Source: Arcobacteraceae bacterium
GTDB taxonomy: Bacteria; Campylobacterota; Campylobacteria; Campylobacterales; Arcobacteraceae
Length of the DNA stretch: 64,000 nucleotides
NCBI GenBank assembly: GCA_963662945.1
Contig: OY759974.1
Span: 576,001 to 640,000 of the forward strand
Direction: 5' to 3'
Both the position numbers and the translations under genes were made by a program. The notes under the pieces were generated by a model. It ran no database searches and was not told the origin of the DNA. It saw only the letters and a list, made by a program, of their open reading frames with translations. Below, one piece after another: positions 1,087-53,918 of the stretch (positions are counted from its first letter, which is position 1; each line of letters starts with the position of its first letter).

Positions 1087-2136
1087 ATGCCAGTCCAGAA
1101 ATTTACTCTTGGTGGTGTAGAGATACCACGAGGAGCAAATATTACTATAAATATTGAACTTCCAAAACTTTATAATACCCCTACACAATTACCTATTCGG
1201 GTAATCAGAGGGAAAAAAGATGGTCCAATTGTATTTATAAGCGCCGCTATTCATGGTGATGAGTTAAATGGAGTTGAGATTATTAGAAGATTTCGAAAAT
1301 TAAATATTTTAAAAAGACTTAAAGGTACTTTGATACTTGTTCCTATAGTAAATGTTTATGGAATTATGAATCTTTCAAGGTATCTACCAGATAGAAGAGA
1401 TTTAAATAGAAGTTTTCCTGGTAGTAGTAAAGGAAGTTTAGCAGGTCGTGTAGCAAAAGTTTTTTTTGATGAGATTGTTTTAAAATGTGATTTAGGGATA
1501 GATTTACATACTGCTTCAATTCATAAATCAAATCTTCCTCAGGTTAGAACAAATATAAACAATGAATATACTTTTAATCTTGCAAAAGCTTTTGCCGCAC
1601 CTGTTATATTACACTCAGAAGTAAGAGATGGTTCACTTCGTGCTGTTGCACAAGAAAAAGGAGTGCCAATACTTTTATATGAAGCGGGAGAAGCTTTAAG
1701 ATTTGATGAAACCTCTATACGCATTGGTGTAAATGGATTGGTAAATGTATTACGAGCAAACAATATGCTTCCTCAAATAACAAGAAAAAAAGCACCTAAA
1801 ACACCACTAATTTCAAGAATAAGTAAATGGATTCGTTCGAGTGAAAGTGGTATGTTACGAACTATTAAAGCTCTTGGAGACACGGTAAAAGAAAATGATG
1901 TGATTGCATATATTGATGAGCCATTAGGAGAACAATCATTTGAAATAACATCCCCTTATGATGGAGTTATTATAGGAAAATCTGAAATTCCTCTCGTTCA
2001 AGAGGGAGATGCTGTTTTTCATATAGCAAAATTTGGTAACCTTGAATTGGCTGAAACAAAAATAGAATACTTTAATGAAGAGATAATCGAACAAAGTGAA
2101 TTCTATGAATTAAATAACGAAGAGATAATAGAATAG
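1087..2136 (+). CDS. Succinylglutamate desuccinylase/aspartoacylase-family (M14-like) metallohydrolase
   Basis: HGDE, DLNRSFPG, DLH and YEAGE motifs; usual rimK neighbour. Confidence 0.88.
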   Translation: MPVQKFTLGGVEIPRGANITINIELPKLYNTPTQLPIRVIRGKKDGPIVFISAAIHGDELNGVEIIRRFRKLNILKRLKGTLILVPIVNVYGIMNLSRYLPDRRDLNRSFPGSSKGSLAGRVAKVFFDEIVLKCDLGIDLHTASIHKSNLPQVRTNINNEYTFNLAKAFAAPVILHSEVRDGSLRAVAQEKGVPILLYEAGEALRFDETSIRIGVNGLVNVLRANNMLPQITRKKAPKTPLISRISKWIRSSESGMLRTIKALGDTVKENDVIAYIDEPLGEQSFEITSPYDGVIIGKSEIPLVQEGDAVFHIAKFGNLELAETKIEYFNEEIIEQSEFYELNNEEIIE

Positions 2137-3183
2137 ATGGAACTTTTTTACGATATTTTAAAACAACTTATAAGAATCCCAAGTGTAGTTGGTGCTGAGC
2201 ATCCTTTTTTCATGTTTGTTAAACGAGAATTAGAAGAACTAGGGGTTGATGTTGAATACTATGATGGTGTACTTGTAGCAAAGGGAAGTGAACCAACAAG
2301 TGGTTATATTTCAGCCCATGCTGATAGACATGGACTTATTTGTACTGGACATAATGAGTTTCAATATGCTGCTTTTATCGCAAAAAACCAAGCAGACCTA
2401 ACAGGAAATTCAAACTCTGAACAACTTCTAAAAAACTTTACAGATAGATTTGTAGATCAAAAAGTTCAAGCGTATGAACCTTGGTCTGGAACATATCTTG
2501 GATTAGGAAACATTAAAGAAACTTTTTTATGTAAACGGCGAAACAATATTATTTTTAAAGTTGATGGTTTTGAACATCTTATGCCAGGAACTCCTATAGG
2601 CTTCGTAGATAAACTTAAAATTGATGAAAATGGGCTCGTTTCTGCACAATTAGACAATGTTATCTCTGTAGCAATTATTATTTATATGTATACAAAGGGA
2701 TACAAAGGTACTTCGTTTTTTACAGCATCAGAAGAAGCTGGAAAAAGTTGGAGATTTTTATTAGAATATTTTAGACGATTTGATCTTGATACAAAAAAAC
2801 TTTTGGTACTTGATACAAGCCCTTATAAAAATGTAAGTGATATCAATCATCTTGATGTAGTCTTGCGAAATAGAGATGAAAATGGTGTATTTCGTTCGTC
2901 ACTAAAAAACAAAATTAAAAATATCTGTATTGAAAACAATATAAACTATCATTTTAAAGATGCTTATTTAAAAAATATAATGCAACAAGAGGGAACAAAA
3001 GGTTCATTAGGGGTTACAGAACTTGGAAGAATCATACATGCAACAAAAGGAAATATTCAAGGGGCAACTCTACAGCTTCCAACAATTGGCTACCATACAG
3101 TTGAAGAAACAACAACAAAAAAATCTATAGATAGTATGATACTTATTCTTTCAAAACTATATGGTGTAGACGATAATGTTTAA
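2137..3183 (+). CDS. M42/M20-like zinc metallopeptidase
   Basis: LIRIPSVVGAE N-terminus; HADR, QLDN, SEE and GYHT metal-ligand motifs. Confidence 0.75.
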   Translation: MELFYDILKQLIRIPSVVGAEHPFFMFVKRELEELGVDVEYYDGVLVAKGSEPTSGYISAHADRHGLICTGHNEFQYAAFIAKNQADLTGNSNSEQLLKNFTDRFVDQKVQAYEPWSGTYLGLGNIKETFLCKRRNNIIFKVDGFEHLMPGTPIGFVDKLKIDENGLVSAQLDNVISVAIIIYMYTKGYKGTSFFTASEEAGKSWRFLLEYFRRFDLDTKKLLVLDTSPYKNVSDINHLDVVLRNRDENGVFRSSLKNKIKNICIENNINYHFKDAYLKNIMQQEGTKGSLGVTELGRIIHATKGNIQGATLQLPTIGYHTVEETTTKKSIDSMILILSKLYGVDDNV

Positions 3184-38354: not shown

Positions 38355-38368
38355 TTGACTTACATCAA
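38355..38368 (+). promoter_or_regulatory. FNR/Nss-type box TTGACTTACATCAA upstream of the Crp/Fnr gene
   Basis: TTGA-N6-TCAA; 22 nt before TAGGAT (38391-38396). Confidence 0.7.
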
Positions 38369-38402
38369 ACTAAAAATATTAATTATAAGATAGGATATTA
38401 TT

Positions 38403-39065
38403 ATGACAAATATGACAGAAACTATTAAAAAAATTAACCTTTTTGCACATTTAGATGATGAGTCTTTAGAGAAATTAGCTTCGATATCTTACTTGTCAAA
38501 ATTTGATAAAGATGCTATTTTATACTATGAATCAGATTCAATAGATAAAATACTTTTTTTAATCACTGGACTTATAAAAGTGTATAAAATAGACAAATAT
38601 GATAATGAGATATTTTTATATTATATCTACCCAAACAGTATGATATCAGAGTTATCAAATCTCAATCATAATAAAATTAGGTGCTTCTCAAATACGGAAT
38701 TTGTAGAGGACAGTTTAATGCTTTCAATAGATTATAAAAAGTTTAAAGAGTTTTTTTTACTAGATAATGAACTTGCGTTAAAATTTATAGAAGAGATTAT
38801 ATACAAAAACCAACAATTACAATGTATTGTCAACCGCGAATTAGTATTTGATGCTACTTCAAAAGTTGCCTTTATGTTAGTCAATGACTTGGATATGTTT
38901 AATCAACTTAAACGAAATCAAGTAGCTTTAATGTTACATATTCAACCAGAAACCCTCTCCCGAGTTTTAAACAGACTTATGAGAAATAAAACAATAAATA
39001 TAGATAAAGGAAATGTAATCATCGAAAATATCGAAGAGTTACAAAGTATCTATTTAGGAGTATAA
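38403..39065 (+). CDS. Crp/Fnr-family regulator (Nss/DNR-like, no N-terminal Fe-S Cys cluster)
   Basis: cNMP-binding fold N-terminus; HTH recognition helix QPETLSRVL. Confidence 0.88.
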   Translation: MTNMTETIKKINLFAHLDDESLEKLASISYLSKFDKDAILYYESDSIDKILFLITGLIKVYKIDKYDNEIFLYYIYPNSMISELSNLNHNKIRCFSNTEFVEDSLMLSIDYKKFKEFFLLDNELALKFIEEIIYKNQQLQCIVNRELVFDATSKVAFMLVNDLDMFNQLKRNQVALMLHIQPETLSRVLNRLMRNKTINIDKGNVIIENIEELQSIYLGV

Positions 39066-43304: not shown

Positions 43305-44121
43305 AACTCATCTCCTTAGTTTTTTGACTTATTAAATCTCTTATTGAGAAATTCAAAGCATCATCATCACAAACCTCTATACATCTTGCACAATTTGTAC
43401 ATTCACCACTCAAAACCTGTTCACTTGATTTTCCAACCATAAATAACACTTGACTTTCAGGACAAACTTCTTTACACTTCATACACAATGTACACTTTTC
43501 TTCTTCATGCTTTACTCGAATCAAACTAAATTGCCCAATCAAAGAGTAAAATCCACCCAATGGACAAATATGTCCACACCAACCATTTTTTAAAACAAAA
43601 AGGTCAAATAAGAATATAACTACAATAGCAGCCCATCCAAAACCCATTCCAAAAACAATACCTCTATGTACCATCGATATAGGAGAGATAAATTCAAAAG
43701 CAGTCACTCCAAAACCTACAGAGATAACAAGACTCAAAGCTATAACCCAATATCTCATACTTCTAGTAGCAGGTTGTCTTTTTTGTATTTGATTAAACCC
43801 TAATTTTCTACGTAAATAATTTGCACCATCTGTAATAATATTTACAGGACAAACCCAAGAACAAAAGGCACGACCACCAACAAGTCCATAGAATAAAACT
43901 GCAACTAAGGCACCTATAAATACATTGGATGCTATTAATGCACCTGCTGCAAACATTTGTAACACTGCATAAGGGTCACTCATAGGAATCGTATCTAATA
44001 TTAAAGAACTACTTAAATTTCCTACTATAAAATCCCAACCCCATGCATTTGCACCAAAATATAAAACCATCAAACCTATTTGAGAGATTCGTCTCAAGAT
44101 GAGATATTTATTTTTAATCAT
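43282..44121 (-). CDS. napH: Quinol dehydrogenase membrane subunit
   Basis: GRAFCSWVCP, WCGHICPLG and two 4Fe-4S motifs. Confidence 0.93.
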   Translation of the reverse strand: MIKNKYLILRRISQIGLMVLYFGANAWGWDFIVGNLSSSLILDTIPMSDPYAVLQMFAAGALIASNVFIGALVAVLFYGLVGGRAFCSWVCPVNIITDGANYLRRKLGFNQIQKRQPATRSMRYWVIALSLVISVGFGVTAFEFISPISMVHRGIVFGMGFGWAAIVVIFLFDLFVLKNGWCGHICPLGGFYSLIGQFSLIRVKHEEEKCTLCMKCKEVCPESQVLFMVGKSSEQVLSGECTNCARCIEVCDDDALNFSIRDLISQKTKEMSYENNDKN

Positions 44122-44917
44122 CTAAAAGCCCTCCCATATCATTTAATGAATCCACAGCTTTTTCTTTACTAAGCTCTGTTTTTGTTGTTTGACTTGTAGC
44201 ATTTTCAAGCCTTTTCTCATCATTTTTATCCCAACCTTTGATATAGTAATCTCCAGCTTTACCTAAAGCTATATCTCTTGGTAGTACAAAAATAGATGCT
44301 TTTTCAGTTACACAAGCCCTTTCACATAAACCACAACCTGTACAAAAATCACTATCTACAACAGGTTTTAAAAATGCATGTTTACCAGTTCTTTCATTTT
44401 TTTCATATTCTATTTTTATAGCCACATCTAACAATGGACATGCTCTATAACAAGCATCACACTGAATACCCCAAAAAGCTATACAGTTTTTAGTATCAAT
44501 AACAGCGATTCCCATATCTGCCATATTAATATCAAGTTGCCCATCAGATTTACTTACCTTTTTTATATCTAAAGCATCTGTGGGACAAACAGGCACACAC
44601 GGTATATCTGTACACATATAACAAGGAACTTCCCTTGGTGTAAAATACGGAGTACCTATTGGTTTATTATCTCCAGGTGCTGCTAATTTTAATGTATCAA
44701 ATGGACACGCTTCTACACACATTCCACATTTAATACAAGTTGCAAGAAAATCTTCCTCTTCTAAGGCTCCAGGGGGACGAAGCACGAATGAACTTGCTGT
44801 TACCTCATCAACATAAGCACTCCAAACTAAGCCACCTAAAGCAGCTAATCCTGTAGCTCTAGCTATCGTTAAAAAGAATTTTCTTCGATCAGTCATTGTA
44901 TCTTTCATAATCTTCAC
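44114..44917 (-). CDS. napG: Quinol dehydrogenase periplasmic Fe-S subunit
   Basis: Tat DRRKF, LRPPGA and CIKCGMCVEACP motifs. Confidence 0.93.
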   Translation of the reverse strand: MKIMKDTMTDRRKFFLTIARATGLAALGGLVWSAYVDEVTASSFVLRPPGALEEEDFLATCIKCGMCVEACPFDTLKLAAPGDNKPIGTPYFTPREVPCYMCTDIPCVPVCPTDALDIKKVSKSDGQLDINMADMGIAVIDTKNCIAFWGIQCDACYRACPLLDVAIKIEYEKNERTGKHAFLKPVVDSDFCTGCGLCERACVTEKASIFVLPRDIALGKAGDYYIKGWDKNDEKRLENATSQTTKTELSKEKAVDSLNDMGGLLDD

Positions 44918-44930
44918 TTCTTGTTTTTAA

Positions 44931-44958
44931 AAGTAATTAGTCTAAAGACTAACTACTT
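44931..44958 (-). other. Intercistronic hairpin between napA and napG
   Basis: AAGTAATTAGTC-TAAA-GACTAACTACTT imperfect inverted repeat. Confidence 0.5.
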
Positions 44959-44964
44959 AAATAT

Positions 44965-47781
44965 TTATGCTTGGTAAATTTTTACAGCACACTTTTTAAA
45001 GTCAGTTTGTTTTGACTGTGGACAAGTTGCATCAAGACAAACTTTATTGATAAATACTTTTTCATCAAACCATGGTACGAATACAAGTCCTCGTGAAGGT
45101 CGATTTCTACCTCTAGTTTCAACTCTCGCTTTTACTTTTCCTCTTCTAGATTCTACCCAACAAAGACCACCTTGTTTGAGTCCTTTTGCAGCTGCATCTT
45201 CTGGGTGTATATAACATAAAGCTTCTGGAACAGCTCTATAAAGTTCAGGAACTCTCATTGTCATAGTACCACTATGCCAGTGTTCTAGTACTCTCCCTGT
45301 ACATAACCAAGTATCGTACTCACTATCTGGTATTTCTGGTGGATCCATATATGGTCTTGCAAATATTTTAGCTTTATTTGTTAACGCTTTTTTGTTTTTA
45401 TCTTTTACACCATTTAAGTCACCATAAGGTAATGCTTTGGCTAACTTACCATAAAATGCAAACTCTGTATGTCCCGTCTCTTTTCCATATTTTTTAGCAT
45501 AAGGGTCATATTTTGCATTAAATCTCCATTGAGTCTCTTTTCCATCAACAACTGGCCATTTAAGTCCTCTTACCCTATGATAAGTATCAAAGTCTGCTAA
45601 ATCATGAGCATGTCCTCTACCAAACCATGCGTATTCTTCAAATAAGTACTTTTGGATAAAGAATCCATACCCTTTCCAAGCTTTACCGTCTGATCCTAAA
45701 ACATTTCTACTATCTCCAAAACCTTCAGTATTATCATAGCCTTTTTGGATAGGATCATTTTGATCTAGTTTATAACTTCTAGCTTCATCATTTGCAAAAA
45801 GGATATCAAACATTGTTGTATCTTCATTGTATCCCATTGCCTTTGCTTTTTCAATAATATTTGGTAATGCTTCTTTTCTTGGACCACTTGGTGCATAAGA
45901 ACCCCAAACATCTTTAACAGTAAACCTTTTTGACAATTCAACCCATTGCCAAGTATCAGACATAGCATCACCTACTGGTAAAACTTGTTGTCTCCAATGT
46001 TGTGTTCTTCTTTCCGCATTTCCATATGCTCCCCATTTTTCATAAATCATTGCAGATGGTAAAATAAGGTCACTAACTTTTGCAGAAATACCAGGATATC
46101 CATCAGATGTTACGATAAAATTATCCATCTCACGTGCAGCTTTAATCCAGTGTTTTGCTGATGCTGTATCTTGATAAGGATTACATACATTTACCCAAGC
46201 AAACTTAATAAGTCCATCTTCAATATCTCTATGGATTCTCATTATATCTTGAGTTCCAACAGGATTAATTGTACCCTCTGGTACTTTCCATCTATCTTCA
46301 GTGATTTTTCTATGTTTTGGATTTGCTACCATCATATCAGCAGGCAATCTATGACAGAACGTACCAACCTCTCTAGCAGTTCCACAAGCAGATGGTTGTC
46401 CCGTAAGTGAGAATGCACCACTTCCTGGTTTTGCTTGTTTATTCAATAAGAAGTGAACATTGTACGAAAGTGTATTTACCCATGTACCTCTTGTATGTTG
46501 GTTCATACCCATTGTCCAGAAACTTACAACTTTTCTGTCTTTTTCAATATAATATGAAGCTAATGTTTTAAGTTTTTTCTTAAACTCTTCAATATCTTCA
46601 TCAGGATTTCCTTTAGATATTTTTGCTACATAATCAAGTGTATAAGGAGCAAGAAATTTTTTATACTCTTCAAAAGAAATTTCCCAGTGAGCTAAACCTG
46701 CTGGTTTATTCTCCATTACATCACCCTCTTTATATCCAAAAGGCTCTAATGCTGGTGCTTCAGTAGCTGAAACTACTTTTTTCATCTCTTTTGAAATAGT
46801 CTCCATCTCTTTTGCTGTATATTTTCCATCTTTAAGAGCTTGTTCTCCATCTCTTCTCATACCATACCCTGTATTTACAGGTTGTGAACAGAAAATCATA
46901 TGTTTGTTTACAAAGTCCCAATCAATAGACTCTGGATGATTATACACTATCTCATGTGCGATATAGTTCCAAAGTGCCAAGTCAGTATTTGGTGTAAAAA
47001 TAATCTCGATATCAGCAAGGTCTGAAGTCCTATGTCTATATGTAGAGATATTTACAACTTTTACTCTATCTGGATCAGATAGTTTTCTATCCGTAACCCT
47101 AGACCATAAAATCGGATGCATCTCTGCCATATTTGAACCCCATGATACAACTGTATCAGTAATCTCAATATCATCATAACAACCACTTGGTTCGTCAATA
47201 CCAAAAGTTTGATAAAATCCAACAACCGCAGATGCCATACAGTGTCTTGCATTTGGATCAAAAGCATTTGATCTAAATCCACCTTTCATCATTTTTTGAG
47301 CTGCATATCCTTCCATAACAGTATATTGCCCACTTGCAAATACACCAACACCCTCTGGTCCACTCGCTTTAAGTGCTTTTTTAATGTGAATTTCCATCTC
47401 ATCAAATGCTCTTTTCCAAGATACAGGTGCAAATTTTCCATTTTTATCAAACTCACCTTTTGCATTTACTCTTAAAAGTGGTGTTTTAAGTCTATCAGCC
47501 CCATACATGATTTTTGCATTAAAGTATCCTTTAATACAATTAAGCCCTCTGTTAACAGGTGCAGCTGGGTCACCCTTTACTGCTACTATCTTACCCTCTT
47601 TTGTAGCCATCATAATTCCACAACCTGTACCACAAAATCTACAAGCTGCTTTATCCCAACGCCAACCAGCTTCAGCCGTGTTTGCAGCAGCGCTTAAATT
47701 ACTTGGTACACTCATACCAACAGCAGCAGCAGCTGAAGCAGCAGCTGAACTTTTTAGAAAGTCTCTTCTTGAAAGTGCCAT
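44965..47781 (-). CDS. napA: Periplasmic nitrate reductase catalytic subunit
   Basis: Tat [23 protein letters not shown] and TGRVLEHWH motifs. Confidence 0.98.
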
Positions 47782-47847
47782 GTTTTCTCCTTTTTATATG
47801 TTTGTCCTTAAACAATAAAAGTTTAACACTATAAATAATTAATTATC

Positions 47848-47861
47848 TTGACCTTAGTCAA
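47848..47861 (-). promoter_or_regulatory. FNR/Nss-type box for the napA promoter
   Basis: TTGACCTTAGTCAA; 22 nt from minus-strand TAAACT (47820-47825). Confidence 0.75.
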
Positions 47862-47959
47862 TTATATTAATTATTAAACCTAAACAACTAAATTTTATTG
47901 TAACAACTCTCAACTTAAGATTTTAATTTTTTAAAATTATAATTTAACAATAAATATAT

Positions 47960-48001
47960 TTGATGTAAGTCATACTTTTTTTGATTTTATTTTTATAGAA
48001 T
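47960..48001 (+). promoter_or_regulatory. Class II FNR-type promoter of candidate sRNA 1
   Basis: TTGATGTAAGTCAT (47960-47973) + 22 nt + TAGAAT (47996-48001). Confidence 0.7.
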
Positions 48002-48006
48002 TTCGT

Positions 48007-48076
48007 AAATTAAAAACCGCTTGTTTTTTACGGACCCTCCTAAAGTCATAAAGTTTCTTTCGGTTTTTAGTTTTTT
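48007..48076 (+). ncRNA. Candidate small RNA 1 (anti-SD loop)
   Basis: 13-bp closing stem AAATTAAAAACCG/CGGTTTTTAGTTT; inner GAC-CCTCCTAAA-GTC hairpin; paralog at 49529. Confidence 0.6.
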
Positions 48077-48165
48077 GCATATTGAACTTAAATATAATTT
48101 TATTAAGTTAAGCACTTTTATTTATTAGTGTGTGATACCTATAATAAAAAAACTTTTTTAAGAAT

Positions 48166-48603
48166 TTAATTAAGTATCCCAGCACCATCAATAGCAGTGC
48201 TTCTATCTTGGGCATACACTCTTTCACCCTTGATAATATCATATTTCCATATAGGAGCACTAGCTTTAAAGTCTTCTACAAACTCATCAATAAGCTCTAG
48301 TGCAACTCTTCTTTTTGGGCTACATACTGCTGCTATATAGGAGCTTGTATGATTTGGAACATCACCTCGACTATGAGCCATCAGTACTATTGCATTTTTC
48401 TCTTTTGCTTTTATCTGCCAAGATTCAAACCAAGAGTTTAAGATAGGCTCATAGATATCAAAACTCAAACCATCAATTCCATCTTCATCTCGAACTACTC
48501 CAACAAAAGTGATAATTGCTCCAAAATTAGAAAGTCTAAAATTGTTATACCACTTGTTTGTTATTTTTTCTACCTCTAAGCTACCATCATATAACTCTAA
48601 CAA
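48166..48603 (-). CDS. moaE: Molybdopterin synthase catalytic subunit
   Basis: GAIITFVGVVR and FKASAPIWK motifs. Confidence 0.9.
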   Translation of the reverse strand: MLELYDGSLEVEKITNKWYNNFRLSNFGAIITFVGVVRDEDGIDGLSFDIYEPILNSWFESWQIKAKEKNAIVLMAHSRGDVPNHTSSYIAAVCSPKRRVALELIDEFVEDFKASAPIWKYDIIKGERVYAQDRSTAIDGAGILN

Positions 48604-48680
48604 AATTATTCCTTTTTAAATTTTAATTTTATACCTGAGTTTTTTATGCTAAAGCATATAAAAAAACTCCTCCTAAGTTA

Positions 48681-48707
48681 AAAAAGCAAAGCAGTTTGCT
48701 TTTTCTT
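48681..48707 (-). terminator. Terminator-like hairpin after moaD
   Basis: AAAAAGCAAA-GCAG-TTTGCTTTTT inverted repeat. Confidence 0.55.
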
Positions 48708-48712
48708 AACAC

Positions 48713-48934
48713 TTATCCGCCACATACAGGAGGAAGTAAAGATACTTTATCTCCATCTTTGAGTATTTTATTTTTATCTTTTACTAAAGTGTCATTTACT
48801 GCAACTGCACTATTGTTTAACCAGCTTTTTAAATTTTCATCTTGTTTTAAAATTTCACTTAATTCATTAAGGTTTTGTATATCAACACTTATTGGTTTTT
48901 TATTGATTGGTCCTAAAAATTCTATTGTTACCAT
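48713..48934 (-). CDS. moaD: Molybdopterin synthase sulfur carrier
   Basis: [17 protein letters not shown] with C-terminal GG. Confidence 0.92.
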
Positions 48935-49422
48935 AATCTATCCTCCTTCTCTCTATTAAAATCTCCAGATTTTCCACCACTTTTATGTTCAAGTTGTAGA
49001 TTTGATATTATCATACCTTTATCTATTGCTTTTACCATATCATAAATAGTAAGTAATCCTATAGATACTCCTGTTAGTGCTTCCATCTCTACACCTGTTT
49101 GTCCTTTAAGTTTTGCTGTAACTGTTAGTTTAAATCCTGGCAACTCATCTAATTGTTCTACATCACAATTAATACCTGTTAGTAGTAGTGGATGGCACAT
49201 AGGAATAAGTTCAGGTGTTTTTTTTGTTCCCATAATTGCTGCAACTACTGCTGTTTGTATTACAGGTCCTTTTTTATTTTGATTTGATATTACATTTTGA
49301 AATGCAACATTGCTCATAGATATAATTCCACTTGCAACAGCAACTCTTGTAGTATCCTCTTTAGAAGAAACATCTACCATTTTGGGTCGATGGTTTTGGT
49401 CTAAATGTGTTAAGTTATTCAT
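48928..49422 (-). CDS. moaC: Cyclic pyranopterin monophosphate synthase
   Basis: [22 protein letters not shown] and YDMVKA motifs. Confidence 0.95.
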
Positions 49423-49480
49423 TGTTTTATCTTTCCTATTTTTTAAAACTAATCACAAAGTAAAATATTTATAATTCTCT

Positions 49481-49522
49481 TTGATGTAAGTCATAGCATT
49501 GAATATAATTTATTTATATAAT
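49481..49522 (+). promoter_or_regulatory. Class II FNR-type promoter of candidate sRNA 2
   Basis: TTGATGTAAGTCAT (49481-49494, identical to the 47960 box) + 22 nt + TATAAT (49517-49522). Confidence 0.7.
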
Positions 49523-49528
49523 GTTACT

Positions 49529-49618
49529 AGTAAATTAAAAACCGATTATTGTTCAATATCCTTGTCTCCTAAAGTTAAAGCAAAGAAGTTACAATATTTA
49601 ATTGGTTTTTAATTTCTA
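49529..49618 (+). ncRNA. Candidate small RNA 2 (anti-SD loop)
   Basis: 17-bp closing stem AAATTAAAAACCGATTA/TAATTGGTTTTTAATTT; central TCTCCTAAAGT. Confidence 0.6.
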
Positions 49619-49624
49619 AGGATA

Positions 49625-49951
49625 TTATTGGTATTCTATAACAGTATAAAAAATATTATCTTCTAAAAAGCACTCTTTTACTGTATAGCCATCTTTTAAC
49701 TTTAAAAATGGTTTTAAAGAGTTATTTGAAGAGACTACTAAGCGATCATTGTTTTGCAATAATGTTTGTCCAATTTGGATATTGTGTAAGATCTCTTCTC
49801 TTTGAAGATATATTCCCTCAAAACAATAATGTATACCATCTTCTTGTTTTACTTTATAAAAATCTACTGTTGTCTCAGGAAGTATAGATTTATTTGTATC
49901 TTCTACTACTCCGCCACTACATAGACAAGCTCCTGTTCCACAACTTTCCAT
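49625..49951 (-). CDS. Hypothetical protein with N-terminal CGTGACLC motif
   Basis: AAGGA RBS and its own FNR-type promoter. Confidence 0.65.
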   Translation of the reverse strand: MESCGTGACLCSGGVVEDTNKSILPETTVDFYKVKQEDGIHYCFEGIYLQREEILHNIQIGQTLLQNNDRLVVSSNNSLKPFLKLKDGYTVKECFLEDNIFYTVIEYQ

Positions 49952-50008
49952 TTTTTATCCTTTTTTGTTAATTTTGAATAATTTTAGCTTTTTTAGTATG
50001 ATTTTAAA

Positions 50009-50022
50009 TTGACCCATATCAA
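50009..50022 (-). promoter_or_regulatory. FNR/Nss-type box
   Basis: TTGACCCATATCAA; 22 nt from minus-strand TAAAAT (49981-49986). Confidence 0.75.
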
Positions 50023-50035
50023 AAATTTTTACTAT

Positions 50036-50374
50036 CTATTTTGATTCATAAAGATAAGTTGCAATTTTTTCTAAAGTATCTTTGTCGTACCCAAGCTCTG
50101 GCATAATCTCATATTTTTCTATCATATCCTGCATAATTGAGCCTTCATGAAAAGGTTTATAAACCCAATTCACCATATAATTTACAAACTCTTTTTTCTC
50201 TCCAAAAGCTTCGTGGTATCTCTGTTTTATCATTTTTAAAGAGGGTGCTGAGATATTTTTTGTTTCATGATGACAAGTGATACAGTTACCATACAAAAGT
50301 AATCTTCCATAGGAATCTGCATAACCCAAGCTTGTACTGAATAGTAGTATTAAAACTAAATGTATTGTTTTCAT
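50036..50374 (-). CDS. Monoheme cytochrome c
   Basis: Signal peptide, CITCH, distal MP. Confidence 0.85.
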   Translation of the reverse strand: MKTIHLVLILLFSTSLGYADSYGRLLLYGNCITCHHETKNISAPSLKMIKQRYHEAFGEKKEFVNYMVNWVYKPFHEGSIMQDMIEKYEIMPELGYDKDTLEKIATYLYESK

Positions 50375-50437
50375 AATATATCTTTCTCTTATTATTTTTA
50401 TTATTTATTATAATATCTTAAATATAATTATTTGTAA

Positions 50438-50451
50438 TTGACATATATCAA
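50438..50451 (+). promoter_or_regulatory. FNR/Nss-type box between divergent genes
   Basis: TTGACATATATCAA; 22 nt before TAAAAT (50474-50479). Confidence 0.75.
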
Positions 50452-50485
50452 AAAAAAATCCATTTTTTTTCTATAAAATTAACCT

Positions 50486-51097
50486 ATGAAAAAAATAAAT
50501 AGTATCAGTAATACAAGAATAAAACCAAAACTTCTAAGGGAACAAAAAACAGAAGCACTATTAGTTTTTATTCGAACTACCTTAGAGCAAATCAACTATC
50601 AAGAAAACTGTATAGAACTAGGCTCTTTGGAAGATAGAAACTATATTCAAAAAACTTTACAAGAACTACTTGAAAATCTTCAAAAATATGTTGTCAATTC
50701 TTCCTATCTTCAATACCTTATAGACAATAGTCATACAAGTAAGAAGCTTTCTATACTACTTATTACAGAAATGCCTCTTATTACTTATTATAGTGATCTT
50801 TCAAGAGTTATGAAACACAAACTACTAAGTGGAACAAGATGGATACCGCAGCTCATAGTGATAGCACTGTTAAGTGAATGGATACTAGAAGAGGAAAAAT
50901 CTATGCATCTTTACCCTTTTTTACAAAATATTGACTATCTAGATTTAATAGAAAGATATGATAAAATAAAGCAAAGTGAAACATCAAAAAATAAAACAAC
51001 AATTATGAAAATGTATAAACTATCTACACTTTTAATCCAAAAACTCAAACTTTCATCGTATAAGATAAAAAAATCTAAAAAAAAGAAAAAAAGATAA
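50486..51097 (+). CDS. Hypothetical helical protein with basic C-terminal tail
   Basis: 203-aa ORF; no recognised motif; ATG sits at the predicted +1. Confidence 0.65.
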   Translation: MKKINSISNTRIKPKLLREQKTEALLVFIRTTLEQINYQENCIELGSLEDRNYIQKTLQELLENLQKYVVNSSYLQYLIDNSHTSKKLSILLITEMPLITYYSDLSRVMKHKLLSGTRWIPQLIVIALLSEWILEEEKSMHLYPFLQNIDYLDLIERYDKIKQSETSKNKTTIMKMYKLSTLLIQKLKLSSYKIKKSKKKKKR

Positions 51098-51127
51098 CTA
51101 CCACCAATGAATAGAGATTTATATAAT

Positions 51128-51141
51128 TTGACAAAGGTCAA
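51128..51141 (+). promoter_or_regulatory. FNR/Nss-type box
   Basis: TTGACAAAGGTCAA; 22 nt before TAAAAT (51164-51169). Confidence 0.75.
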
Positions 51142-51195
51142 AGATTTAAATTTTAATTTAGTATAAAATTAGACAAATTAAAAAAAGGAAAGAAA

Positions 51196-51489
51196 ATGAA
51201 AAAAATAATTTCAATTGGTTTATTATTAGGGTTTGCTTCAACTATGGCATTAGCAGATGGAGCAACAGTATATAAAAAATGTGTTGCATGTCATGGGGCA
51301 AATGGGGAAAAAGTTGCTTTGGGAAAAAGCAAAATTATCAAAGATATGACAAAGGCTGATATAGAAAGCTCACTTTTAGGATATAAAAATGGAACATACG
51401 GTGGTGCTATGAAAGGTCTTATGGCTGGACAAGTAAAATCATTAAGTGTTGCTGATATTAAAGATATTGCAAATTTAATAGGAAAATAA
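51196..51489 (+). CDS. Cytochrome c553-like
   Basis: Signal peptide, CVACHG, YGGAMKGLM. Confidence 0.9.
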   Translation: MKKIISIGLLLGFASTMALADGATVYKKCVACHGANGEKVALGKSKIIKDMTKADIESSLLGYKNGTYGGAMKGLMAGQVKSLSVADIKDIANLIGK

Positions 51490-51638
51490 CTCCTATTTAT
51501 TCACGTCTCACATCTTCTAAAGTTGTATTTTTAAATGTGTTAAAATATACTCTTTAGAAGATGCCTACTTGAGTTGTAACTCAATCTGTACTTTATTCTT
51601 TTAAGATATAATCAACTATAAAGTTAGGAGTTATTCTA

Positions 51639-53918
51639 GTGTTCCAAAATTTTTCTATAAAACAATCTTATACACTAATATTTATCATCCTTATTTTTTG
51701 GGCAAGTATAGCATACTATACAATGAATACTCTTATTAATTCGCAAAGTTACTATGCAAAACTTATAAACTTAAGTGGTAAACAAAGAATGCTTTCACAG
51801 AAAAGTGCTTTTCTAGCTTCAAAATATATCCAGCAATCATCTAAAGATTATTTAATATTAATCGAAGAAACTATTAAAGAACTAGAACAAAATCACTTTT
51901 ATATCACAGAAAATCTTTCACAAGAAGCACAAAATTTTTACTTTAAAGAACCTGTAAAGTTAGACACTAAAGTTACAAGCTATATAAACTTGCTCAAACA
52001 GTTTCACTCAAATGCGACATCTACTTTGGAAATAGCTATCTTTGAAAATTCCCAAACACTTCTGATGCATTTGGATAAAGCTGTAGCCATATTTCAAAAA
52101 GAAAGTGAAACAAAAACAAAAAATCTTCAACAAAGAGAGTTCCTAATATTTTTAGGAACTATTCTTACTATTTTGATAGAAGCACATTTTTTTGCACGGC
52201 CTGTTATTGAAAAAATGAAACTTAAATTTCAAGATTTTTATGACAAATTAAAACAAAAAGACAACCTTATAGACTTACAAACAAAGTTTTTCCAAAATGC
52301 TCATGAGGGTATAGTAATAACAAATAAAGATAACAATATCATTGATTTAAACAAAGCTTTTGAAACTGTCACAGGATTTACTAAAAATGAGCTTTTAGGA
52401 AAAAATCCCTCTATTTTAAAATCAGGGGAACACAATGAAGATTTTTATAATACCATGTGGAAAAGTCTCAATGAAAAAGGATACTATAGAGGGGAAGTAA
52501 TCAATAGAAAGAAAAATGGAGAAAAATATGTACAAAATGTATCTATCTTTGCCCTTAATGATGAAAACCAAAATCTTTTAAACTACTTTGCTTTGGTTTC
52601 AGACATCACAGAAAGCTATCTAACACAAAAACAACTCTATAGTCTTGCCAATTACGATACACTAACTAATATTTACAATCGCCACTCTTTTTATGAAAAA
52701 TTAAAACTTTTTATAGATGAGCACAAAAGAAATGGTAAAAAATTTGCATTAATATATATAGATTTAGATGATTTTAAAAATATAAACGATACTTTAGGGC
52801 ATGATTATGGCGATATCTATCTTGTAAAATTTACACAAATTTTACAAGAGGCAATAAGAAAAAATGATATTATAGCAAGAATTGGTGGTGATGAGTTTAT
52901 GGTTATACTCAATGGTTTAGAATCAAGCGAATCTGTACCTCATTTTTTTAAAAGACTATTCTCTTACATACAAAATCCTATTATGATGAAAGGCCTCACA
53001 CATGATATTAAAGCTAGCTTTGGTATTAGTGTATTTCCAGATGATGGAACAAATTCACATCAATTAGTCAAATATGCAGACCTTGCCTTGTATGAATCAA
53101 AAAAAAATGGAAAGAATCAATACACTTTTTATAATATTGATTTTGAACAAAAGCTTTTAGAGGAACTACAACTAGAAAAAGATATTCAAAAAGGACTTCA
53201 AAACAATGAATTTATATTGTTTATGCAGCCAAAAGTTGATTTAAAAAGTGGTAAAACTGCAGGGGTTGAGATGTTAATACGATGGGAAAAAAATGGAAAA
53301 CTTATTTTCCCTGATAACTTTATCCCATTTTGTGAAAAAAGTGATTTAATCGTAGATATTGGAAATGAAGTCTTTAATCAAGTTATTTCAGTCATGAAAA
53401 GATGGGACAAAATTGAAAAATTGAAAAATCTTAATATCTCTTTTAATCTTTCTGCAAAACAAATTCAAAATCAACAGTTTAAAGAAAAAATCTTAGAAAA
53501 TAAAGATTTTTTACTTTCTAAAAAATCTATTTTAATTGCAGAGATTACAGAACACTCTATTGTAGAAGACTTTGAAAATATGCAAAATTTTTTAGGGTTT
53601 TTAAAAGAGTGCAATATTAAAATTGCTCTTGATGATTTTGGTACAGGATATTCATCTTTACAGTATCTCAAAGTTTTACCTATTGATTATCTAAAAATTG
53701 ATAAGGAGTTTACTTTTAATATTTTAAAAAATCCAAAAGATAAAGCTATAACCAAAACGATTATAGACCTTGCGAAAAATCTTGAACTTGAAATTATCGT
53801 AGAAGGGGTTGAAACAAACGAACATGTAGAGTTTTTTGTGCAAAATAACTGTAAATATGCCCAAGGGTATTTCTACTCAAAGGCTATTCCAGTTCAAGAA
53901 TTAGAAACAAAAATTTGA
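51639..53918 (+). CDS. NarX-like sensor-PAS-GGDEF-EAL c-di-GMP enzyme
   Basis: INLSGKQRMLSQK, PAS (NKAFE.VTG), RIGGDEF, EML and DDFGTGYSS motifs. Confidence 0.88.
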   Translation: MFQNFSIKQSYTLIFIILIFWASIAYYTMNTLINSQSYYAKLINLSGKQRMLSQKSAFLASKYIQQSSKDYLILIEETIKELEQNHFYITENLSQEAQNFYFKEPVKLDTKVTSYINLLKQFHSNATSTLEIAIFENSQTLLMHLDKAVAIFQKESETKTKNLQQREFLIFLGTILTILIEAHFFARPVIEKMKLKFQDFYDKLKQKDNLIDLQTKFFQNAHEGIVITNKDNNIIDLNKAFETVTGFTKNELLGKNPSILKSGEHNEDFYNTMWKSLNEKGYYRGEVINRKKNGEKYVQNVSIFALNDENQNLLNYFALVSDITESYLTQKQLYSLANYDTLTNIYNRHSFYEKLKLFIDEHKRNGKKFALIYIDLDDFKNINDTLGHDYGDIYLVKFTQILQEAIRKNDIIARIGGDEFMVILNGLESSESVPHFFKRLFSYIQNPIMMKGLTHDIKASFGISVFPDDGTNSHQLVKYADLALYESKKNGKNQYTFYNIDFEQKLLEELQLEKDIQKGLQNNEFILFMQPKVDLKSGKTAGVEMLIRWEKNGKLIFPDNFIPFCEKSDLIVDIGNEVFNQVISVMKRWDKIEKLKNLNISFNLSAKQIQNQQFKEKILENKDFLLSKKSILIAEITEHSIVEDFENMQNFLGFLKECNIKIALDDFGTGYSSLQYLKVLPIDYLKIDKEFTFNILKNPKDKAITKTIIDLAKNLELEIIVEGVETNEHVEFFVQNNCKYAQGYFYSKAIPVQELETKI

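Follow-up and report, generated by a model that had tools for sequence, protein, structure and literature searches.

A predicted Crp/Fnr-linked RNA element of Arcobacteraceae, present twice behind promoters without a protein gene and possibly a small RNA derived from the nnrS leader

Two promoters of the Crp/Fnr type in the genome of an Arcobacteraceae bacterium raise a simple question: what do they transcribe? They lie in a 64,000-nucleotide (nt) stretch of DNA (the window, G000:C1:576001-640000; G000 is the label of the source genome, a single contig of 2.5 Mb with 29% GC), and they are the only promoters of the regulon island there that have no plausible protein gene behind them. A preliminary description, made from the sequence alone, read them as driving a sibling pair of free-standing small RNAs (sRNAs) of no described family, each displaying a loop complementary to Shine-Dalgarno (SD) sequences. 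We find that the element behind both promoters is real, conserved and linked to the regulon, and that it is most likely a small-RNA family that is new but of a well-known type. The reading that we favour, tentatively and with a confidence that falls a little short of an even balance, is that each copy is a Crp/Fnr-activated small RNA that derives from the leader of nnrS and acts through an anti-Shine-Dalgarno loop.

Two copies of one element behind class II-type promoters

Copy 1 lies in the gap between moaE and napA, and copy 2 in that between a 108-amino-acid (aa) open reading frame (ORF) and moaC. The features of both are read on the + strand, and the flanking genes all lie on the - strand. 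Box, 22-nt gap, -10 hexamers, common blocks and closing stems are all present as the preliminary description had reported them:

47960-47973, + strand: Crp/Fnr-type box of copy 1, TTGATGTAAGTCAT (pattern match)
47996-48001, + strand: -10 hexamer of copy 1, TAGAAT, 22 nt past the box
48007-48076, + strand: predicted RNA of copy 1, about 70 nt, ends predicted (covariance-model score 77.4 bits)
48007-48019 with 48061-48073: closing stem of copy 1, 13 nt, 92% complementary (inverted-repeat scan)
48037-48046: CUCCUAAAGU of copy 1, in the apical loop, with a U-run at 48074-48076
49481-49494, + strand: Crp/Fnr-type box of copy 2, TTGATGTAAGTCAT
49517-49522, + strand: -10 hexamer of copy 2, TATAAT, 22 nt past the box
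49531-49618, + strand: predicted RNA of copy 2, about 88 nt (covariance-model score 68.1 bits)
49532-49548 with 49599-49615: closing stem of copy 2, 17 nt, 94% complementary
49566-49575: CUCCUAAAGU of copy 2
48005-48019 and 49530-49544: common block GTAAATTAAAAACCG
48037-48046 and 49566-49575: common block CTCCTAAAGT

The copies are identical in the box (14/14 positions), the 5′ arm (15/15) and CTCCTAAAGT (10/10), and the 3′ arm is also kept, whereas the spacer and the interior have diverged. The statement that neither copy encodes an ORF does not hold literally, since mechanical TTG ORFs of 35 aa (48021-48128, + strand) and 37 aa (49499-49612, + strand, beginning upstream of the predicted transcript start) exist; these have no ribosome-binding site (RBS) and are not conserved in the homologues. 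Inspection by eye found no conserved small ORF on either strand of the elements.

In class II promoters, a TTGAT-N4-ATCAA-like site is centred about 41.5 bp upstream of the transcript start, with ~22 nt between the site and the -10 hexamer. TTGATGTAAGTCAT followed after 22 nt by TAGAAT or TATAAT has the geometry of a class II Crp/Fnr-dependent promoter. The pattern TTGAY-N4-RTCAW-N22-TANNNT matches nine times in the window, against a mean of 0.10 in shuffled sequence (0 of 100 shuffles reached nine); genome-wide it has 22 sites, 14 of them within 614-648 kb (window positions 38355-64000 and beyond). TTGATGTAAGTCAT itself occurs in four exact copies in the genome, one of which, again with a gap of 22 nt, stands ahead of an nrdD-like gene. 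Behind the combination of box, 22 nt and -10 stand genes for a Crp/Fnr-family regulator, napA, the 108-aa ORF, a cytochrome-c-like ORF, a cytochrome c, nnrS, and MoaA-like, NrdD-like and hemerythrin-like products, among others; the last four of this list were named by eye from N-terminal sequences. The box thus bears out its description as a regulon site of fixed 22-nt geometry, heading napA, nnrS, nrdD, moaA and cytochrome c genes alike, and judged by the probable products of these genes the set fits a nitrate/nitric oxide (NO)/anaerobic regulon. A gene of the Crp/Fnr family is indeed present where it had been reported (38403-39065, + strand; Pfam cNMP_binding and HTH_Crp_2) and is the candidate activator of the two RNA promoters, a link that we infer.

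The element is conserved in two genera

The preliminary description had proposed scanning Arcobacteraceae genomes with a covariance model. We built two such models, the first from five sequences and the second from eight, and found homologues in two genera: 28 genomes of the genus and 11 of a second one (g8) were covered, and 8 of the former and 4 of the latter carry the element. No match was obtained with the first model in other genera among the 151 family genomes sampled, nor any credible match among 140 genomes that represent the order's other families. The promoter unit is strictly kept, with the box, exactly 22 nt, TAnnnT, 5-9 nt and the 5′ arm following one another in all 13 genome instances.

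By synteny, homologues were recognised upstream of and divergent from napA in three relatives (G131, G138 and G115). G131 keeps an orphan element, and the sequence between it and napA is longer there, with little visible resemblance. Copy 2 is missing at the junction of the 108-aa ORF and moaC in G115 and G131, and G000 alone among the carrier genomes has two copies, the others one each. Hence the two copies are real, but the sibling pair is confined to this genome.

Three candidate homologues were rejected. A weak match in G316 from the order-wide model search is a generic AT-rich intergenic hairpin without box or CUCC; a match at G115:C21 (36 bits) likewise has no box and no CUCC; and the strict pattern AAAACC..CTCCTAAAG..GGTTTT gave three matches in 183 other family genomes, all resembling chance matches in coding sequence. 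A scan of metagenomes for the arm words returned at least 120 loci; among the matches listed, 4 have the full architecture and 116 lack the box architecture.

In G115, the sequence between element and napA (locus L053) contains a stretch that resembles the 3′ end of a sensor-kinase gene whose intact form is found in G133 (L049). Apparently the remnant of a decayed gene, it is a sign of repeated rearrangement of this intergenic region.

A predicted closed rod with an unpaired CUCCU motif

Both copies fold more stably than dinucleotide-shuffled controls, copy 1 with a z score of -2.25 (3 of 200 shuffles as good) and copy 2 with one of -4.98 (0 of 200). The closing stem is AU-rich, encloses an interior of 41-50 nt and is followed by a U-rich tail after the 3′ arm. 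Across 11 distinct sequences, 96.8% of its 154 cells are paired, and compensatory changes occur at two stem positions (C-G to U-A and G-C to A-U). Seven cells are G-U pairs on the + strand, arising from four independent events, each of which would be A-C on the other strand; A-C cells number two, both at helix ends. The + strand is favoured because of these G-U cells together with the promoter direction, which is kept in 13 of 13 instances, and the proposal that this strand is the one likely transcribed is upheld.

The interior is poorly conserved except for a CUCC(U)-plus-A-rich motif. All of the 11 aligned variants contain UCCU, 10 of them contain CUCC(U), and the mean unpaired probability of CUCC/UCCU lies between 0.67 and 1.00 in each of the eight variants folded. 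Conservation of the motif and its predicted exposure are thereby supported, and the minimum-free-energy fold of copy 1 places CCUCCUAAA in the loop of a GAC/GUC hairpin, as described.

Leader of nnrS or an RNA in its own right

In five genomes of the two genera (G138, G115, G133, G073 and G077), the element precedes the start codon of an nnrS gene (Pfam NnrS, 1.4e-44) by 35-45 nt, on the same strand. No other box promoter serves nnrS there, and the element is physically its 5′ leader. This arrangement weighs against a small RNA acting in its own right, and so do several features of the element itself. Covariation is thin, with 7 of the 14 stem pairs invariant. The reverse strand folds more stably than the + strand in all 13 instances (for example, -22.8 versus -13.5 kcal/mol in G134; the reverse-strand hairpins of copies 1 and 2 reach -13.9 and -21.8 kcal/mol), a difference that we attribute to G-U pairing of the GGAG-rich complement but that is a real caveat. 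A simple scan of 47700-49800 called no intrinsic terminator at either element, and the closing stem is not of the canonical form, a short GC-rich stem with a small loop and a U-run directly behind it.

The element could accordingly be a cis-acting 5′ leader of nnrS, either a promoter-proximal attenuator or terminator or a hairpin that controls stability or translation, with the orphans in the window as relics or as stops for a leftover promoter. Its place upstream of nnrS in two genera suggests that this is the ancestral state, and the U-rich run behind the 3′ arm would suit such a role. Short nnrS leaders elsewhere point the same way. Of 17 nnrS loci from public genomes, 12 lack the element, and most of these show box, 22 nt, -10 and a short leader; several of the short leaders begin (A)CUCCUA and carry GGAG 12-15 nt later, before the start codon (G000, L084/L085 of Sulfurovum, and L087). 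In G000 itself, nnrS is on the minus strand and its leader (G000:C1:640201-640260, locus L061) is of the short ACUCCUA type. It is possible that these leaders form a hairpin that sequesters the RBS, from Arcobacteraceae to Sulfurovum, in which ACUCCUA would be an anti-SD in cis. The CUCCUA of the element may descend from it, and the element itself seems to have developed from an nnrS leader in which the anti-SD would first have acted in cis.

What speaks against a purely cis-acting leader is, first, that the nnrS RBS behind the element reads AAAGGC or AAAGGG, and that no conserved complement of CUCCU was found there by eye in the printed sequences; second, that the 12 nnrS loci just mentioned do without such a leader; and third, the behaviour of the orphans. 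From the element's position nnrS is gone in G000 and G131; in G132, G134 and G135 the element points away from a Crp/Fnr gene on one side and towards a cytochrome c gene on the other; and in G074 it is orphaned as well. Box, -10, stem and motif are nevertheless kept in all seven orphan instances (two in G000 and one each in G131, G132, G134, G135 and G074), one of them duplicated with block-wise conservation. Our main argument for a function independent of nnrS is that the orphans retain these parts and that the diverged G000 copies are conserved block by block. The nnrS-linked instances qualify the free-standing sRNA of the preliminary description, and they keep the cis-acting leader a serious, if less probable, rival.

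The orphans divergent from a Crp/Fnr gene have a further neighbourhood in common. In the divergent cluster of G132, G134 and G135 (L067 of G134, 1573-3055), the Crp/Fnr gene is followed by two ORFs named by eye as hemerythrin-like (141 aa) and DUF2249-like (85 aa), which together with the Crp/Fnr gene make a typical NO-response trio. The Crp/Fnr protein of G134 is 31% identical to the regulator encoded at 38403-39065 of the window.

A proposed mechanism and its candidate target

If the element is a small RNA, it would work as follows. From a class II-type promoter that belongs to the local nitrate/NO/anaerobic regulon of the Crp/Fnr family, a + strand RNA of ~70-90 nt would be made. It would start at, or a few bases from, the 5′ arm of the long AU-rich stem in which its 5′ and 3′ ends pair, and it would end in a U-rich tail. 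The product would be a closed rod with a weakly structured top from which the unpaired CUCCU is displayed as an anti-Shine-Dalgarno. The element was probably born in the region between the nnrS promoter and its gene, where it still resides in several relatives; in those genomes transcripts that terminate would become the small RNA, and those that read through would become nnrS mRNA. In the present genome, nnrS would have been lost from the site while promoter and RNA survived and were then duplicated. The exposed CUCCU(AAAGU) would pair with the RBSs of target mRNAs and block their translation while the regulon is on, and the best predicted target is ccoN. Transcription, the RNA ends, the efficiency of termination, action in trans and the target are the parts of this account that we infer.

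The gene ccoN encodes subunit I of the cbb3 oxidase (TIGR00780, 683 bits, cut-off 583). In a ranking of 2276 crude RBS windows of G000, taken from crude gene starts, it comes first for copy 1 (-20.6 kcal/mol, z -4.7), fourth for copy 2 and first for both combined. The predicted pairing of copy 1 with ccoN comprises 11 contiguous bases (ACUUUAGGAGG) and a second block of 7 bp. In g8, the four elements pair with the ccoN leaders of their own genomes at -19.4 to -21.2 kcal/mol, values equalled by 1 to 7 of the 2276 background windows; the g8 motif CUCCUCC-A-AAAAUAAAA-C-AAAG matches the g8 ccoN leader CUUU-A-UUUUAUUUU-A-GGAGGA. In G073, the ccoN site is among four genome-wide matches to the loop complement at two mismatches and is the sole one to retain GGAGGA.

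Against ccoN stands the fact that most of the score comes from core pairing with its AGGAGGAG site, which is unusually long. When only the flanks were shuffled and the anti-SD core was held constant, pairing was as good in 91 of 2000 trials for copy 1, 220 of 2000 for copy 2 and 70 of 2000 for G073, and the flank-shuffle p value for the ccoN pairing is about 0.035-0.11. Elsewhere the pairing is weak: the number of background windows, of 2276, that do as well is 599 in G131, 166 in G115, 92 in G133, 52 in G134 and 25 in G138, and these five lineages have core pairing only with ccoN. The complement of the G133-type loop found no extended target in G133, G115 or G138, where its matches were about equal in number to those of a reversed-pattern control. 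The ccoN leader is invariant in the genus, even in genomes that lack the element, and one metagenomic g8-like variant has a different flank.

The exact 10-mer ACTTTAGGAG stands ahead of a start codon in three genes, namely ccoN and two small ORFs of 104 aa and 114 aa, and no functional theme was seen among 22 near-matches to it. A seed-based scan gave many equally good sites inside coding regions and was therefore uninformative. On these pairing predictions, ccoN is a reasonable but unproven target.

Alternatives tied to the site, the other strand or mobility

A second class of explanation is that the elements act locally, opposite the napA unit and the unit of 108-aa ORF and moaCDE, as antisense RNAs, brakes on convergent transcription, or bidirectional terminators or insulators. 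The gap that holds copy 2, between the 108-aa ORF and moaC, is internal to a unit with its own box promoter (49981-50022), and in relatives these two genes abut; in each of four orphan settings (copy 1, copy 2, G131 and G134), the element and a convergent gene meet with their 3′ ends; and the stable reverse-strand hairpins of both copies (-13.9 and -21.8 kcal/mol) would suit a bidirectional role. The context, however, is not conserved, the element lying elsewhere upstream of nnrS or divergent from a crp/fnr gene. A terminator or insulator would also leave the conserved unpaired CUCCU unexplained, and the G-U pairs of the stem favour the + strand. We regard local action in this genome as improbable, though still a serious rival.

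The position of both copies upstream, on the - strand, of genes for a molybdoenzyme and for molybdenum cofactor (Moco) biosynthesis suggests a different possibility, a functional RNA on the minus strand such as a riboswitch-like leader of napA and moaCDE that senses the cofactor. The neighbours first raised this suspicion, and minus-strand folds are at least as stable as those of the + strand. The likeness to the Moco riboswitch (the Moco RNA motif of Rfam) ends with the neighbourhood, upstream of napA and moaCDE: the strand is wrong, neither the Moco model nor any other in Rfam matches even at E values up to 10 on short regions, and napA is served by a separate conserved box promoter, located downstream of the element. 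Homologues in relatives are tied to nnrS or crp/fnr, without a link to moa or nap, and copy 2 is missing from syntenic moaC loci. The interior is not conserved in the manner of a ligand pocket, and the stem's G-U pairs would become A-C mismatches. The Moco riboswitch was accordingly rejected, and a minus-strand leader of any kind is very improbable.

Equally hard to credit is a mobile hairpin of the kind of a miniature inverted-repeat transposable element, or a functionless chance AT-rich repeat: the arms do resemble terminal inverted repeats, compared with G115 and G131 copy 2 is inserted sequence, and metagenomes abound in generic AT-rich hairpins that share the arm words (the 116 among 120 listed matches without box architecture), but each genome has just one or two copies, always behind a box promoter at a fixed distance, inspection of the flanks showed no target-site duplication, and the internal motif is conserved across two genera.

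Relation to known regulatory RNAs

Searches of Rfam agree with the claim that the element belongs to no described family. A scan of 44000-53000 with cmscan and Rfam 15 (E<=1) gave only two spurious mir-5984 matches, located elsewhere, and the two short regions 47780-48170 and 49420-49640, searched at E<=10, produced nothing beyond sub-threshold chance matches, of at most 18.7 bits.

The small RNA that we favour would nonetheless resemble several known systems. FnrS represses mRNAs by pairing at or near ribosome-binding sites; it is ~120 nt long, depends on Hfq and has a canonical terminator. This enterobacterial sRNA (PMC8595263, PMC10993149) is alike in being a small RNA with an FNR-type site at class II distance in an anaerobic regulon. 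The element differs in that it has no sequence or structure match to FnrS and is a 5′/3′-closed rod of 65-90 nt linked to nnrS. An FNR-induced sRNA of Neisseria is a further regulon-embedded small RNA. RoxS/RsaE of Firmicutes are under NO control, and their regulators are ResDE/SrrAB and Rex. They are redox- and NO-linked sRNAs (PMC5419742, PMC8216469) whose unpaired C-rich motifs act on G-rich RBSs to tune respiratory and central metabolism. Phylum, regulator and fold are all different here, several CCCC motifs of RoxS stand against one CUCCU, and there is no homology. What the element would have in common with FnrS, the Neisseria sRNA and RoxS/RsaE is the principle of a regulon-embedded small RNA with a C-rich seed.

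To our knowledge, Arcobacteraceae lack Hfq. Also without Hfq, CJnc190 of Campylobacter is an sRNA with a C/U-rich loop. RepG of Helicobacter pylori (PMC8295292), likewise a Campylobacterota sRNA, acts through such a loop without Hfq; it targets a G-repeat in the tlpB leader and not a Shine-Dalgarno sequence, is not known to have an FNR-type promoter, and has no Rfam or sequence similarity to the element.

SreA and SreB of Listeria are riboswitch-derived sRNAs of the 5′ untranslated region that arise by premature termination. The nnrS-linked instances would fit this model, in which a structured leader ends as a short trans-acting RNA and read-through gives the mRNA. The element differs from SreA/SreB in having no conserved ligand-binding core and in persisting without a downstream gene.

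In the literature on Arcobacter sRNAs and on ccoN, sRNAs and Campylobacter, we found no description of such a regulatory RNA. A genome-wide survey of non-coding RNAs covered the intergenic regions of Arcobacter sp. L (Stav et al. 2019), and the passages and supplements searched make no mention of nnrS, nitrate reductase or cbb3.

The surrounding regulon island

The genes and promoters that flank the two copies are as follows:

44965-47781, - strand: napA (NCBIfam NapA, 1432 bits against a cut-off of 904)
47820-47861, - strand: napA's own promoter, with palindromic box TTGACTAAGGTCAA, 22 nt and TAAACT, distinct from the box of copy 1
48166-48603, - strand: moaE
48713-48934, - strand: moaD-like gene
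48928-49422, - strand: moaC
49981-50022, - strand: box promoter of the 108-aa ORF/moaCDE unit, to which copy 2 is antisense

Two small ORFs near the elements, of 108 aa and 112 aa, are also on the minus strand. From gene order, and from relatives with moaC directly after the 108-aa ORF, this ORF and moaCDE would form one operon. All 17 napA loci examined in the genus have a TTGAY-N4-RTCAA box, ~80-180 nt ahead of the napA ATG. The Crp/Fnr gene has its own box, 22 nt and TAGGAT at 38355-38396, ending 6 nt ahead of its ATG at 38403, a layout that suggests autoregulation and possibly a leaderless mRNA.

A second moaC lies outside the window at G000:C1:1229119-1229595 (locus L039), its protein 96% identical and its neighbour an apparent rpsU, named by eye. 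It is probably the housekeeping copy, in which case the moaCDE set adjoining napA would be a duplicate specific to the regulon; two moaC genes are likewise found in several relatives. Further along the window, the palindromic box at 50438-50451 (region 50410-50479) fits the 22-nt grammar on both strands and would serve divergent promoters, for a 112-aa cytochrome-c-like ORF on the - strand and a 203-aa ORF of no Pfam family on the + strand. A near-perfect palindromic hairpin (51499-51574) follows right behind the cytochrome c gene; both of its strands draw a spurious mir-5984 match, and it probably terminates transcription in both directions.

Implications

Even if the element were a mere leader or terminator, the analysis maps a compact 35-kb regulon island with a strict promoter grammar of box plus 22 nt. 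Taken to its full extent, the small-RNA reading describes an undescribed family of Arcobacteraceae riboregulators that arose from the nnrS 5′ leader: a Crp/Fnr protein sensing NO or anaerobiosis would turn on a closed-rod RNA that silences translation of ccoN, and maybe of other mRNAs with strong RBSs, so that nitrate respiration and NO defence are coupled to repression of an NO-sensitive oxidase, and in this genome the RNA would have been freed from nnrS and duplicated. We consider that whole chain doubtful. Were the RNA itself real, it would give the nitrate/NO regulon a post-transcriptional arm, provide a clear case of a 5′ leader turned into a free-standing, duplicated sRNA gene, and predict that the NO-sensitive cbb3 oxidase is repressed while nitrate respiration is induced.

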